Assembly: GCA_028228555.1 (NCBI GenBank) | Contig: JAOJBP010000005.1 | Span: 20,197-84,196 of the forward strand | Direction: 5' to 3' | DNA: 64,000 bases | Origin: Candidatus Thioglobus sp. | Lineage (GTDB): Bacteria > Pseudomonadota > Gammaproteobacteria > PS1 > Pseudothioglobaceae | Shown here: positions 8,413-52,797 of the stretch, piece by piece | Numbering within the stretch: position 1 is the stretch's first letter | Layout: each line of letters starts with the position of its first letter | Notes under the pieces: generated by a model | Seen by the model: the letters and a program-made list of their open reading frames with translations, nothing else | Told to the model about the DNA's origin: nothing | Database searches by the model: none | Program-made: the position numbers and the translations under genes

Positions 8413-10096
8413 AGAACTCGATCAGACCTTACTCGCAAGCTATTCGGATGATATTCCCAATTTTTTAAAACATATTTATGCAGCTCGCGGCGTTAGCGAA
8501 TCTCAATTATCATTAGGCTTATCAAATTTACTCACGCCTAATTTTGACCATCTAGATCGAGCCCTAGATTTATTAGAGCAAGCTTTATTAGAGCAAAGAC
8601 GTATTTTAATCATTGGTGATTTTGACTGTGACGGCGCAACTGCCTCGGTGGTGGCGGTTAAATCATTACGCATGATGGGTGCTAAATATATTGATTTTTT
8701 AGTACCAAATCGATTTGAGCATGGTTACGGGCTTTCGCCAGAAATTGTAAAGCTTGCTATTAAAGAAAAACAGCCTGATTTAATCATTACGGTTGATAAC
8801 GGCGTCTCAAGTTTTGATGGCGCCAAGCTGGCTAAAGAATCAGGTATTAATGTCATTATCACCGATCATCATCTGCCTAGTGACTCACTGCCAGAAGCTG
8901 ATGCCATTATTAATCCAAATCTTAAGGGTTGTGAATTTTTAAGTAAAAATCTAGCCGGTGTTGGTGTCTGTTTTTATTTGTTTTCAGCGCTTAGAACTCA
9001 CTTACAAAAAATTCAATATTTCACTAATAATAATATCTCATCGCCAGATCTACGCATTGTGCTTGATTTAGTTGCACTTGGAACGGTGGCTGACGTGGTG
9101 AAGCTTGATCAGAACAATCGTATTTTGATTGACCAAGGCATTAAGCGCATTCGCGAAAAACAATGTTCACCTGGTATTTTGGCACTGTTAGAAATTGCTA
9201 ATAGACCCCCAGAAACCTTGCAAGCCAGTGATTTGGGATTTGCAGTTGGACCTCGACTGAATGCAGCAGGGCGCCTGAGTGATATTTCCCGCGGTATTAA
9301 ATGCCTGCTAACAGATGATATGAATGATGCTAGACGCTATGCCAAAGAGCTAGAAGAATTTAACCAAAAGCGTAAAGAAGAGCAAGCGCGTATTCAAGAT
9401 GAGGCGCAAGTCATTGTCGATATGCAAGAGCTGTCCGAAGGTAAATTTGCCCTCAGCCTATTTGATCCGTCTTGGCATGAAGGTATTGTTGGTATTGTTG
9501 CGGGTAAGCTTAAAGAGGATTATCACTGTCCAGTGGCGGTATTCGCTAAATCTGGAGATTTCTTAAAAGGCTCTATTCGCTCAATCCCCGATGTACATAT
9601 TAAAGATTTACTTGATTTAGTTGATCGAAAAAATCCAGGCTTAATTCTTAAATTTGGTGGTCACGCTATGGCGGCAGGGTTAAGCATAAAGCTAGAAGGA
9701 TTTTCATCTTTTAAACAAGAGTTTAACAAAGCAATTAAAGCTCACCTTAACAACGAAATACCTAAAGTCGAATTATTAACAGACGGCAAACTTGAGCCGC
9801 GTGATATTTCACTAGACAATGCACAAATTTTGCAACAAGCAGGGCCTTGGGGGCAAAGCTTTGAGGAGCCTATCTTTTTTGGTGATTTTGAAATTGTTGA
9901 GCAAAGAATCGTGGGTGAAAAGCACTTAAAATGCCGATTAAAAGCTATTAATAGCAATCAAGTGTTTGATGCCATTGCATTTTTCCAAGCCCCACTGGAT
10001 TCAACACAAGTGAGTGTTGCTTATAAACTCTCAATTAACATTTGGCGTGGAAGTACTTCTTTACAACTCATGGTTGAACAGATAAACCCTATTTAA
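8399..10096 (+). CDS. recJ: ssDNA exonuclease RecJ
   Basis: GDFDCDGA, PNRFEHGYG, ITDHH, GPRLNAAGRL and FGGHAMAAG motifs. Confidence 0.97.
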   Translation: MMLTRELDQTLLASYSDDIPNFLKHIYAARGVSESQLSLGLSNLLTPNFDHLDRALDLLEQALLEQRRILIIGDFDCDGATASVVAVKSLRMMGAKYIDFLVPNRFEHGYGLSPEIVKLAIKEKQPDLIITVDNGVSSFDGAKLAKESGINVIITDHHLPSDSLPEADAIINPNLKGCEFLSKNLAGVGVCFYLFSALRTHLQKIQYFTNNNISSPDLRIVLDLVALGTVADVVKLDQNNRILIDQGIKRIREKQCSPGILALLEIANRPPETLQASDLGFAVGPRLNAAGRLSDISRGIKCLLTDDMNDARRYAKELEEFNQKRKEEQARIQDEAQVIVDMQELSEGKFALSLFDPSWHEGIVGIVAGKLKEDYHCPVAVFAKSGDFLKGSIRSIPDVHIKDLLDLVDRKNPGLILKFGGHAMAAGLSIKLEGFSSFKQEFNKAIKAHLNNEIPKVELLTDGKLEPRDISLDNAQILQQAGPWGQSFEEPIFFGDFEIVEQRIVGEKHLKCRLKAINSNQVFDAIAFFQAPLDSTQVSVAYKLSINIWRGSTSLQLMVEQINPI

Positions 10097-10391
10097 TTAG
10101 AGTTTAAAATTTCTCAAATTATGTGAATGGCACTTATTTTTGATTTTTTGTCATATTTTTAGCTAAAAAACCACGAATAAGCGCCTTATTTCTCCTAAAG
10201 CACCCCTATTTATATTGATTTAAGCCTTAATATTGCTATTTTTTAGCCGATTTATCATAGTTAGGTAATTTTAAATAAAAATTTGGCGAAATATTAAAAT
10301 TAATTTTTTTTTAAACTGTTTTTTTGACTTATATCAATAATATACAAATACTTATATAATTTGACCATATTATTTTCAGTAGGGACTTTTA

Positions 10392-36065: not shown

Positions 36066-36175
36066 AGTCATCCTTCGTGAGATTAAAAAAAGATTATGTA
36101 TCGGACTGATTTCGTAAAGAAAAATACCGTTGCGAGGACAGTGTGGGATTGGCACCCACTTCCATAATCAAGTGA
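36066..36175 (-). ncRNA. Cobalamin riboswitch, short class II / AdoCbl-variant type
   Basis: Minus strand GATTATG-GAAGTGGGTGCCAATCCCACACTGTCCTCGCAACGGTA...AGTCCGATA-CATAATC; closing helix GATTATG/CATAATC; -10 TATAAT at 36181-36186. Confidence 0.88.
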
Positions 36176-36341
36176 GCGAGATTATAGACTATTGTTAATA
36201 TGATTTAAAATTAATAAAAACTAGGTGTTAGTTATGATTGATCTAGAACAGATTACTAAGGCTGGATCATTGAAAAATATAGACAATATTGACGTAAAAT
36301 AAGGGCTAATTTTTTACATAATTATTTGGAAAATAATATCA

Positions 36342-41777: not shown

Positions 41778-42104
41778 TTAGTAACCACCTTTACGTCTAG
41801 TTTCTGGAAGACCAGCAACTTTACCAGCTTGTTTAGCAGGACCTTTAGGAAATAAGTTATACAACTCTTTAGTGCCTAATTTACCATCCCAATCATCTTT
41901 CAAACCTTTAACCATGTTGCGTTCGTTAGGCTGATTGGCGTTGTTGTTGATGTATTCATTACGCAGGAAATTAATCAATTTAAAGCTATCATCGGTTAAT
42001 TCGACACCTTCTTCTGCTGCAATTTCATGAGCAATGTCTTCGTTCCAAGTGTTAAGATCAACTAAGTAACCGTGAGCGTCTCTTTCTAAATCTGATAATG
42101 CCAT
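41778..42104 (-). CDS. DsrC/TusE-family protein lacking cysteines (RspA-like)
   Basis: GYLVDLNTWNEDIA...LYNLFPKGPAKQAGKVAGLP is the DsrC/TusE pattern; no Cys anywhere; ends RRKGGY. Confidence 0.85.
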   Translation of the reverse strand: MALSDLERDAHGYLVDLNTWNEDIAHEIAAEEGVELTDDSFKLINFLRNEYINNNANQPNERNMVKGLKDDWDGKLGTKELYNLFPKGPAKQAGKVAGLPETRRKGGY

Positions 42105-50926: not shown

Positions 50927-50992
50927 TCACTCTAAAAATTTACTAAATTTCACAAATCGACCTTAAAGGCCGGATTAGCTTAAAACTTTATC

Positions 50993-52024
50993 CTACTTCC
51001 AAATATCAACTGTAATACCTTGCGCTCTTAACAAGTCCGACTTATGCTCAAGATAACGTTGGAAATTTGGCTGAGTTTTGTATTCACCTGAGAGTACATA
51101 AGTCATAATTCCGTGGGTGTGATAAGACTTGAAAAAAGCATCTCTGCGGATAATCTCTTCGCCTGTTTTATCAAAAAATACGATGGCTGGTTTGTAAGTA
51201 AGATTCAGCTCATTGTACCAATCTTTAGCGGTGGTGCGCTTACCAGCAGGGGTGATAAGTTTTTCATCAGAGAGTGCATTAAAGCGCACAACTTGCATTT
51301 GTTTTAGATGTTTTTGAGTTTCTTCGAGTGGCATAAGTTGCTGATGAAAATCATTACATTCTAGACAATTTGGTTCTTCAAAAAATACTGCCAAGTATTT
51401 TTGTGCAGGCAAGGTTTTGTTTCGAGTCAACATATGTGGACCTTGCTCGAAAATGGCATGGGCATTCAGTGTGCCCGAGGTGTCCTTTTTAAGACTGTTA
51501 AGGTAGCTTGCATATGATTGATTTAAATAGGCTTTATTAGAAACATAATCAAGCGTGGCATGCATTTTATCAACTGATTGATAGCCATTTAGTCTAAGAA
51601 CATTTTCACCTTTTGCGTTTAAAAAGACAAGGGTGGGGGTGAATTGAATTTTCATTTTGGCTGAAAATTCTTTTTCTATGTAGTCATTACCTTGCCAATC
51701 GGTAAGCTCTCTATCGCCCCACATATTGGTTTCAATCGTATCGAAATTTTTTTGTAATTTAGCAACTAGAGCGTTATCATGAAAATTGTCCTGAACCAGT
51801 TTGGCACAATAAGGGCAACCATCTTGATGAAAATAAATCATCACATGCTTACCTTGGTCATCAGCCTCTTCTAGGTCTTCGGAAAAATCCATAAAACTTA
51901 CTTTAAACCAATTTGGCAAATCATCAACGACTTGACTGCCTAAAAATTCAGCCTCTTTTACCGGCTCAACAGCCAGAGTTGGTTGAAATATAAGTAGTGA
52001 AAATAATAGAACTAAAGCGCGCAT
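50993..52024 (-). CDS. soxW: SoxW-like two-domain thioredoxin-fold protein
   Basis: Signal peptide from ATG 52024; LPNWFKVSF, QDGCPYC, IQFTPT, second domain EPNCLEC, YKPAIVFFD. Confidence 0.75.
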   Translation of the reverse strand: MRALVLLFSLLIFQPTLAVEPVKEAEFLGSQVVDDLPNWFKVSFMDFSEDLEEADDQGKHVMIYFHQDGCPYCAKLVQDNFHDNALVAKLQKNFDTIETNMWGDRELTDWQGNDYIEKEFSAKMKIQFTPTLVFLNAKGENVLRLNGYQSVDKMHATLDYVSNKAYLNQSYASYLNSLKKDTSGTLNAHAIFEQGPHMLTRNKTLPAQKYLAVFFEEPNCLECNDFHQQLMPLEETQKHLKQMQVVRFNALSDEKLITPAGKRTTAKDWYNELNLTYKPAIVFFDKTGEEIIRRDAFFKSYHTHGIMTYVLSGEYKTQPNFQRYLEHKSDLLRAQGITVDIWK

Positions 52025-52091
52025 AATCTCTCTCCAGAGTTGATGACAGTTACTAAGAATTGTAGACCCAAAACGACGCCAATGCAAATGC

Positions 52092-52760
52092 TTAGCTTTC
52101 TATGGTTTCAATACCTTTTTGCGCAATGAATAATCCACAGCCTAGTAGGCGATGATCGCCCAATCCTTTTTCTTGTAATAATACAGACTCATCTTTTTTA
52201 AGATCAGCCAGCATTAAAGAGCGAGTGTGAATAGTACCATCATTAGTTTGAATAGTGCGTTCGAGACCGGCCATCATTTTTTTGACTTTAATACCTAAAT
52301 CAGATAACTCCTCAAAGCACTGTTGCAAAAAAGCCTCTTCGCTAATACTTTGATCACAAACTACTTGCTTAGCAAATAAAACCGGCATCTCACTTAATAA
52401 TTTATTGTTAATAAATTTAACAACCTTGATTTTGTATTCACCAAGATTTAGGGTTTGACCAACAATTGTCTTTGCACTATCTAGATATTTATGTTGAATA
52501 CGAATCGTAAGCTTAGAGCGTTTAGATGGATAGTAAAAGCCACCTTCTTTACTTTGCTCCCATCCATTTCCATCTGCTATACCAATAGTGTGAATGCCAG
52601 CGTTAGAATCGCTTAACCAGGGTAAATGCTCGAGCATTGCTTGCGCGAGTAAAAAACCATGATCCATTGGTAATATTTTCGATTGGATTTTAAAGCTAAC
52701 CTCTTGAATACTCTCAGGAAGCGTAAAATGTTCTACATTGGTGTCTTCTTGCCAAAACAT
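52092..52760 (-). CDS. Orphan Cas6/Cmx6-like RAMP protein
   Basis: N-terminal LPMDHGFLL...LPWL, SKLTIR, C-terminal Gly-rich loop GLGDHRLLGCGLF; no other cas genes or array in the window. Confidence 0.75.
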   Translation of the reverse strand: MFWQEDTNVEHFTLPESIQEVSFKIQSKILPMDHGFLLAQAMLEHLPWLSDSNAGIHTIGIADGNGWEQSKEGGFYYPSKRSKLTIRIQHKYLDSAKTIVGQTLNLGEYKIKVVKFINNKLLSEMPVLFAKQVVCDQSISEEAFLQQCFEELSDLGIKVKKMMAGLERTIQTNDGTIHTRSLMLADLKKDESVLLQEKGLGDHRLLGCGLFIAQKGIETIES

Positions 52761-52797
52761 ACAAAATAATTGTTAAATGAATATTGCGTAATTATAG

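Follow-up and report, generated by a model that had tools for sequence, protein, structure and literature searches.

A Cas6 homologue outside CRISPR and its probable tie to Dsr sulfur oxidation in Gammaproteobacteria

What does a Cas6-like protein do in a bacterium that carries no CRISPR system? The question is raised by a 64,000-nucleotide stretch of DNA from Candidatus Thioglobus sp. (assembly GCA_028228555.1, contig JAOJBP010000005.1, positions 20,197 to 84,196), called the window below. Its source assembly is SUP05/Thioglobus-like, comprises 1.25 Mb in 27 contigs and is 97.9% complete. A preliminary description, made from the sequence of the window, had noted a 222-amino-acid (aa) open reading frame of the Cas6 family that carries the histidine of an LPxDH motif and a C-terminal Gly-rich loop. 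Our analysis indicates that its product is very probably a domesticated, CRISPR-independent Cas6 homologue tied to sulfur oxidation by the Dsr pathway, and we refer to proteins of this clade as Dsr-type. The gene is located as follows.

52092..52760, minus strand: Dsr-type Cas6-like gene for a 222-aa protein with a double-RRM Cas6 fold, His34, Arg87 and a Gly-rich loop at residues 199-209

A Cas6-fold protein in a genome without CRISPR-Cas

The assignment to the Cas6 family is borne out by profile searches, alignment and structure prediction. Residues 20-215 match positions 2-190 of the 191 in the Pfam Cas6 model PF09559 (E 1.6e-47, 162.4 bits against a cut-off of 26.7), the NCBIfam model TIGR02807 (cas6_cmx6) gives 102.3 bits, marginally above its cut-off of 98.85, and the Cas6 profiles of PADLOC, the only PADLOC models to be returned, match at up to 8e-58. 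The LPMDH34 motif and the loop GLGDHRLLGCGLF fall in invariant columns of a 32-sequence alignment, in which G199, G201, G207, C208 and G209 are each invariant. The AlphaFold2 model derived from this alignment displays the double-RRM Cas6 fold, with a predicted local distance difference test score (pLDDT) of 90.1 and a predicted template modelling score (pTM) of 0.85. Its best Foldseek match in the PDB is the Cas6 subunit of the Cascade complex of a type I-B CRISPR-associated transposon (CAST; 8fcj_B/8fcu_B, TM score 0.77-0.81), followed by the Pyrococcus and Thermus Cas6 and by Cas6e, and the top 37 PDB matches are all Cas6, Cas6e or Cse3. The sequence profile also retrieves chain B of 8fcj (E 2.7e-30).

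The protein has its closest named relatives in the SUP05 clade (Candidatus Thioglobus, Ruthia, Vesicomyosocius and Thiodubiliella). The gene was found in 23 of 24 genomes of the SUP05 family, including closed, reduced genomes of clam symbionts of only 1.0-1.2 Mb. Within the genus, the ratio of nonsynonymous to synonymous substitution rates (dN/dS) is 0.088 (53 pairs, maximum 0.125), and the gene is under strong purifying selection. One relative carries an in-frame TAA within the gene (G018:C220:7235-7900), which may reflect a pseudogene or an assembly error. Another assembly (G017, 4% contamination) contains two copies with 74% and 62% identity and is probably a mixed bin.

The preliminary description had seen neither a cas gene nor a repeat-spacer array in the 64 kb of the window, an observation that now extends to the whole 97.9%-complete genome. 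Whole-genome searches gave zero matches to Cas1, Cas2, DevR/Cas7 and Cas5, and for Cas3 returned only sub-threshold helicase matches, the same as in every control genome. A k-mer scan for periodic repeats detected nothing array-like in the window or in the genome. The genomic context of true type I-MYXAN members, cas3-devT-devR-devS with an adjoining array, is thus absent from around the Cas6-like gene of the window.

Phyletic and operon linkage to the Dsr pathway

The distribution of the gene was examined in 301 genomes, drawn evenly from the class and each 90% complete or more, the same set being searched with each marker. PF09559 was found in 95 genomes, 91 with DsrA (TIGR02064) and 4 without, and DsrA in 94, 91 with Cas6 and 3 without; 203 genomes had neither marker. 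The corresponding odds ratio of about 1500 is descriptive only, as related genomes are not independent. In two genomes with Cas6 but no DsrA (G045 and G296), the PF09559 proteins are short and CRISPR-type, and the contig that encodes them also carries Cas1 and real arrays (21 and at least 4 repeats, respectively); a third such genome (G136) is 90% complete. Cas1 is present in 51 of 93 Dsr-type carriers versus 74 of 208 non-carriers, which leaves 42 carriers without Cas1. Orthologues thus track dsrAB, accompanying DsrA in 91 of 94 genomes, and not Cas1; the refuting condition set in the preliminary description, orthologues that follow arrays rather than sulfur genes, is therefore answered in favour of that description. 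The sole SUP05-family genome without the Cas6-like gene, which is closed and 1.7 Mb in size, also lacks DsrB. A phylum-level sample was drawn differently and contained almost no carriers, which makes it uninformative on Dsr-positive Alphaproteobacteria. Of the earlier proposal of a CRISPR-free RAMP (repeat-associated mysterious protein) tied to sulfur oxidation, the Cas6 fold, the CRISPR independence and the link to sulfur therefore stand, but the link is to the cytoplasmic Dsr pathway and not to Sox.

The genomic neighbourhood was surveyed at 30 loci from different families of the class, and the neighbours of 45 further loci were clustered and named with NCBIfam. More distant homologues (34-43% identity) have neighbour genes that differ from the SUP05 set. 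Their usual arrangement is a module divergent from dsrA-dsrB-dsrE-dsrF-dsrH-dsrC, with the gene order TauD-like dioxygenase (dsrQ), 63-aa protein, Cas6-like protein, Cys-less DsrC paralogue and 69-aa protein; its last position is often taken by a convergent gene for a YbiX-type Fe(II) dioxygenase. An acidic helical-repeat protein of about 235 aa is encoded directly upstream of the Cas6-like gene, its stop codon overlapping or abutting the Cas6-like start. Thioalkalispiraceae, Thiohalophilus, Chromatiales, Acidiferrobacterales, Thiohalocapsa, Ectothiorhodospiraceae and Sulfuricaulis are the named carriers, all of them sulfur oxidisers.

The Cys-less DsrC paralogue lies directly downstream of the Cas6-like gene, on the same strand, in 26 of the 30 loci, and nearby on the opposite strand in one more. 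All DsrC paralogues found beside Cas6-like genes end in RKGGY, and 26 of 29 are devoid of Cys. The arm motif FP..PSKQ..I.GLP is kept, but the two cysteines are replaced by G/A and G, because of which the Cys-less paralogue cannot carry sulfur. It is of the 'RspA' type, and the partner gene in the window (41778-42104) likewise encodes a DsrC fold that lacks both C-terminal cysteines. Neither the RKGGY terminus, which is invariant, nor the operon tie to a Cas6 homologue was described in the literature searched. Paralogues of the RKGGY type (E <= 1e-24) occur in 85 of 300 genomes, 84 of which are DsrA-positive. In one family (locus L017 in G036, 8950-10215) the place of the Cys-less DsrC after the Cas6-like gene is taken by a gene for a YeeE/YedE-type sulfur transporter (PF04143), and this family showed no RKGGY-type DsrC paralogue at the threshold used.

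The helical-repeat protein was found in 70 of the 301 genomes, all of them DsrA- and Cas6-positive. It has an isoelectric point (pI) of 4.4 and a model (pLDDT 90) with eleven helices forming a TPR-like repeat, for which there was no significant PDB match, only generic TPR-like or designed-repeat matches with E > 0.05. Neither it nor the 63-aa and 69-aa proteins have a family in Pfam or NCBIfam. The name dsrQ for the TauD-like gene that diverges from dsrA goes back to Lenk et al. 2012, according to PMC7596348. In many sulfur oxidisers dsrQ is part of the same divergent unit beside dsrA, and the genome of the window has a dsrQ-like gene. Its product differs from the Cas6-like protein in being a 2-oxoglutarate/Fe(II) dioxygenase and not a RAMP, and PMC7596348 makes no mention of the Cas6-like gene downstream of dsrQ.

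All four partners, the RKGGY-ended DsrC paralogue, the helical-repeat protein, the 63-aa protein and dsrQ, are present in the genome of the window (G000), where they are dispersed. The Cas6-like gene adjoins neither dsrA nor the DsrC paralogue: the parts occupy three contigs (the one containing the window, C1 and C21), and 10 kb separate the Cas6-like gene from the DsrC paralogue.

41778..42104, minus strand: Cys-less DsrC/TusE paralogue ('RspA'-type) ending in ETRRKGGY, alone between aroA and lepB; PF04358 E 7e-30
G000:C1:178263-178442, minus strand: homologue of the 63-aa gene (60 aa here, acidic, …FFRMDVKPDYQDTPENWEDRLEAAFY), directly upstream of the helical-repeat gene
G000:C1:177553-178260, minus strand: helical-repeat gene (235 aa, acidic), ahead of trpF-trpB
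G000:C1:184952-185857, plus strand: dsrQ-like gene, after yidC
G000:C21:46333-50277, minus strand: dsr cluster, dsrABEFHC

The product of 41778-42104 shares 60% identity with the copy that immediately follows the Cas6-like gene at locus L016. No convincing 69-aa or YbiX homologue was found in the genome of the window, and no convincing promoter motif is shared upstream of the scattered SUP05 module genes.

The Dsr pathway has been studied for decades in Allochromatium vinosum. In this organism a gene annotated as 'Cas6-related' (Alvin_1248) and two hypothetical genes (Alvin_1249 and Alvin_1250) directly precede dsrA (Table S2 in PMC11267869). Alvin_1248 is a putative member of the Dsr type, its position and annotation fitting the layout in Thiohalocapsa (L127). 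In the RNA-seq comparison of pyrite versus sulfide, the values for Alvin_1248, Alvin_1249 and Alvin_1250 are 1.12, 0.97 and 0.90 (not significant), those for dsrA and dsrB being 0.038 and 0.046. In the elemental sulfur column, which was compiled from Weissgerber et al. 2013 and is described as relating cells grown on S0 to sulfide controls, the three genes stand at 12.5, 6.3 and 17.7 (P 0.009, 0.002 and 0.002), a rise of 6-18-fold, and dsrA and dsrB at 0.24 and 0.17, a drop of 4-6-fold (PMC11267869). Taken at face value, these figures imply a unit that is transcribed and responds to the sulfur source but is not simply co-regulated with dsrAB.

Our literature search yielded no paper connecting Cas6 to DsrC or dsr, an absence that is no proof that the link is undescribed, and in the literature searched we found no paper that discusses the 'Cas6-related' gene near dsrA of A. 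vinosum. A Dsr-linked Cas6 clade is mentioned neither in reviews on the exaptation of CRISPR nor in the classifications of 2011 and 2025. The exapted derivatives covered by reviews comprise type IV systems, CASTs, a Streptomyces I-E derivative with a STAND NTPase, and HRAMP (PMC8730458). They too are Cas proteins put to use outside adaptive immunity; however, they are multi-Cas modules in mobile-element or defence contexts, whereas the Dsr type is a single Cas6 in core energy metabolism.

Ligand surface, possible roles and rival explanations

A phmmer search started from a CRISPR-linked member against 1.84 billion representatives returned 1597 relatives. The two CRISPR-type representatives with enough surrounding DNA are located in WYL-cas6-cas3-devT-devR-cas5 operons, which is the I-MYXAN layout. 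In a maximum-likelihood tree, 31 Dsr-type and 49 CRISPR-type sequences are split on a single branch with a Shimodaira-Hasegawa-like approximate likelihood ratio test (SH-aLRT) value of 100. A CRISPR-linked member scores 219 bits against TIGR02807, a typical Dsr-type member 129 and the protein of the window 102. The naming of Dsr-type proteins as I-MYXAN Cas6 is thus a product of a permissive cut-off (98.85), because scores of 102-129 bits pass it while true members reach about 219. As such, the annotation 'type I-MYXAN Cas6/Cmx6' is a false CRISPR signal in SUP05, in clam and mussel symbionts and in many other sulfur oxidisers.

In Cas6 enzymes, the general base is usually a histidine located where helix 1 starts, and the RNA backbone is held by the Gly-rich loop. 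When 31 Dsr-type and 143 CRISPR-type sequences are aligned together, both types are seen to have His34 (93% in the CRISPR type), Arg87 (99%), Gln196 and the GxG...GCG loop. The Dsr type thus shares with I-MYXAN Cas6/Cmx6 (TIGR02807, PF09559; PDB 8FCJ chain B) the Pfam family, the double-RRM fold, the LPxDH histidine, Arg87, Gln196 and a GxGxxxxxGCG loop followed by F-P. It differs in having no cas3-devTRS operon or array, in forming a separate clade with about 30 extra residues, in being acidic and present in a single copy per genome, and in its tie to dsrAB. Furthermore, the Dsr type has gained about ten basic positions, four of them (R81, K161, R180 and K215) invariant or almost invariant, and is set apart by an N-terminal FWQE, an N65-G66-W67 insert, W3 and W48. 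An active-site-like core has been kept and the recognition surface rebuilt, which therefore fits a new specific ligand, be it another RNA or no RNA at all.

The reading that explains these data best overall, and to which we assign a probability of about 0.5, is that the Cas6-like clade is an accessory gene of the oxidative (reverse) DsrAB pathway in Gammaproteobacteria and works with the partners encoded in its module. The role that we prefer within that pathway is one in regulation or assembly. The Cas6-like protein would act jointly with the Cys-less DsrC paralogue and the acidic partners, as a ligand-specific binding subunit that tunes the expression, maturation or activity of Dsr. Its ligand would most likely be a defined cellular RNA, possibly cut at the retained His34/Arg87 site, and the Cys-less DsrC would be either a non-reactive mimic of DsrC or a nucleic-acid-binding partner. 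Specific RNA binding or RNA cutting in a regulatory role is a plausible mechanism, at somewhat short of even odds. More tentatively, the Cas6-derived protein may be an overlooked, near-universal part of the gammaproteobacterial DsrAB pathway that, with the Cys-less DsrC as a decoy and the small acidic partners, would form a ribonucleoprotein or protein switch setting sulfite-reductase activity or dsr mRNA according to the sulfur and oxygen regime.

The four to six strictly co-inherited genes point to a missing regulatory or maturation layer of the Dsr pathway, which is of global importance (oxygen-minimum zones, vents and symbioses). If the proposed role is true, this would be the first case in which core energy metabolism has taken in a single CRISPR RAMP, its ligand surface remodelled and its active-site His/Arg pair preserved. 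The role is directly testable in a tractable organism, A. vinosum.

Several observations weigh against an accessory Dsr role with an RNA ligand. Seven positions that are 62-99% K/R in the CRISPR type (136, 150, 167, 168, 173, 175 and 203, the last being the Arg of the G-loop) are replaced in the Dsr type, whose median pI is 5.98 and net charge -5, versus 9.78 and +7 in the CRISPR type; from sequence, this loss of basic residues and the acidic pI fit a changed ligand that is possibly not RNA. At 26 loci the spacers between the Cas6-like and DsrC-paralogue genes have no sequence or structure in common, and the repeats of three real I-MYXAN arrays did not outscore shuffled queries when matched to Dsr-type loci and to the window. 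Across the window, the dsr locus and the helical-repeat locus, tRNAs and a cobalamin riboswitch were the only Rfam matches, and dsrA leaders have a weak tendency to fold (median z -1.26). The phyletic counts for Cas6 and DsrA are not phylogenetically independent. Finally, one genome (G166) has the module, situated at a contig end, without DsrAB, and another (G284) has DsrA without the Cas6-like gene.

The dsrA leader, the only lead to an RNA target of the Cas6-like protein, was set aside: its folding signal is weak, and nothing links it to Cas6. It does have recurrent features: about 24 of 41 loci (L087-L131), from several families, carry a conserved CCCTAGACTTCG box resembling a -10 element at some 100 nt upstream of the ATG of dsrA, then a hairpin whose sequence varies and a conserved GGTAACCCCTTAAGGAGAA ribosome-binding region. 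In the genome of the window, GAGTAGACTTTT is found about 160 nt upstream of dsrA (G000:C21 about 50440).

The same shift from basic to acidic pI, with seven conserved basic residues gone, and the negative searches for RNA elements would be explained if RNA binding had been lost and the protein had become a protein-binding adaptor. Its groove would then hold the basic C-terminal arm of the DsrC paralogue (…SRRKGGY) or DsrAB/DsrEFH, in a decoy or chaperone complex with the helical-repeat protein. The tight operon linkage with the RKGGY-tailed paralogue and the translational coupling with the TPR-like acidic protein (pI 4.4) are in line with such an adaptor. However, His34, Arg87 and the phosphate-binding Gly-rich loop are all invariant, and the gained basic residues R81, K161, R180 and K215 suggest that an anionic ligand is still bound. 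We regard the adaptor as possible but doubtful.

The remaining explanations fare worse than this. It is improbable that in SUP05 the Cas6-like protein processes the mRNA of the neighbouring thioredoxin gene ('soxW') or partners RNase III, with a hairpin at 50945-50972 as its substrate. The order era-rnc <> cas6-like - thioredoxin does hold throughout the SUP05 family, but only in that family, the neighbours elsewhere being dsr-linked; the thioredoxin gene has its own conserved promoter, the hairpin is neither significant nor conserved, and this local reading is largely refuted. A non-CRISPR defence or toxin-like RNase, whose co-occurrence with dsr would reflect nothing but the shared ancestry of sulfur oxidisers, is very improbable. 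Kinship inflates the co-occurrence, and Cas1 is mildly enriched among carriers (odds ratio 2.2); on the other side are (i) the single copy per genome and the lack of a mobile-element context, (ii) the physical linkage to dsrA across many families, (iii) the concordant absence in the SUP05 family, and (iv) the return of Cas6 models only by PADLOC. Least credible of all is a remnant of a lost type I-MYXAN system, or a trans-acting Cas6 serving an array located elsewhere or in unassembled DNA. TIGR02807 does name the protein I-MYXAN Cas6/Cmx6, and the genome is in 27 contigs, but neither a cas gene nor an array is present in a 97.9%-complete genome and 42 of 93 carriers lack Cas1. Moreover, the gene is kept in closed, reduced symbiont genomes (1.0-1.2 Mb) at a dN/dS of 0.09, in a clade apart from real I-MYXAN Cas6.

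Local neighbours in the window

The distances reported earlier, 37 bp to the divergent rnc start (52798) and 67 bp to the thioredoxin gene's conserved ATG (52024), are both correct. The order of these genes is the same in the clam symbionts as in the rest of the SUP05 family, and in other families no thioredoxin gene lies beside the Cas6-like gene. Three features serve as context only.

50993..52024, minus strand: periplasmic thioredoxin-fold protein, 343 aa, with two Thioredoxin_2 stretches; synteny within the family only
52059..52088, minus strand: sigma-70-type promoter of the thioredoxin gene, TTTGCA/TTGCAT-N17/18-TACAAT, from a promoter scan
50945..50972, minus strand: hairpin in the spacer between the convergent yjdM and thioredoxin genes, a weak terminator-like stem at best

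The thioredoxin neighbour has a signal peptide and two Thioredoxin_2 domains with CPYC and CLEC motifs. The label 'SoxW-like' given to it in the preliminary description is not borne out, its only further matches being weak ones of the DsbD/TsoB/DsbH type. In the 67-bp spacer (52025-52091, minus strand), TTGCAT-N17-TACAAT and the Shine-Dalgarno sequence GGGGAGAG are conserved in 11-12 of 13 SUP05-family relatives, which implies that the thioredoxin gene is transcribed on its own. No conserved RNA structure was detected in this spacer across the 13 relatives (0 predicted pairs).

The hairpin that had been put forward as a local substrate, CGGCCU-UUA-AGGUCG, is present on the minus strand at about 50950-50965. 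Its folding z is -0.70, with 46 of 200 shuffles folding equally well, and a terminator scan did not flag it. In relatives from the genus it is replaced by other short stems, or the spacer is absent altogether. There is no evidence that rnc, the thioredoxin gene or the hairpin are parts of the Cas6-like system.

The cobalamin riboswitch identified by Rfam (RF00174) lies at 36076-36206 of the window on the minus strand and scores 32.8 bits against a gathering score of 31.5.

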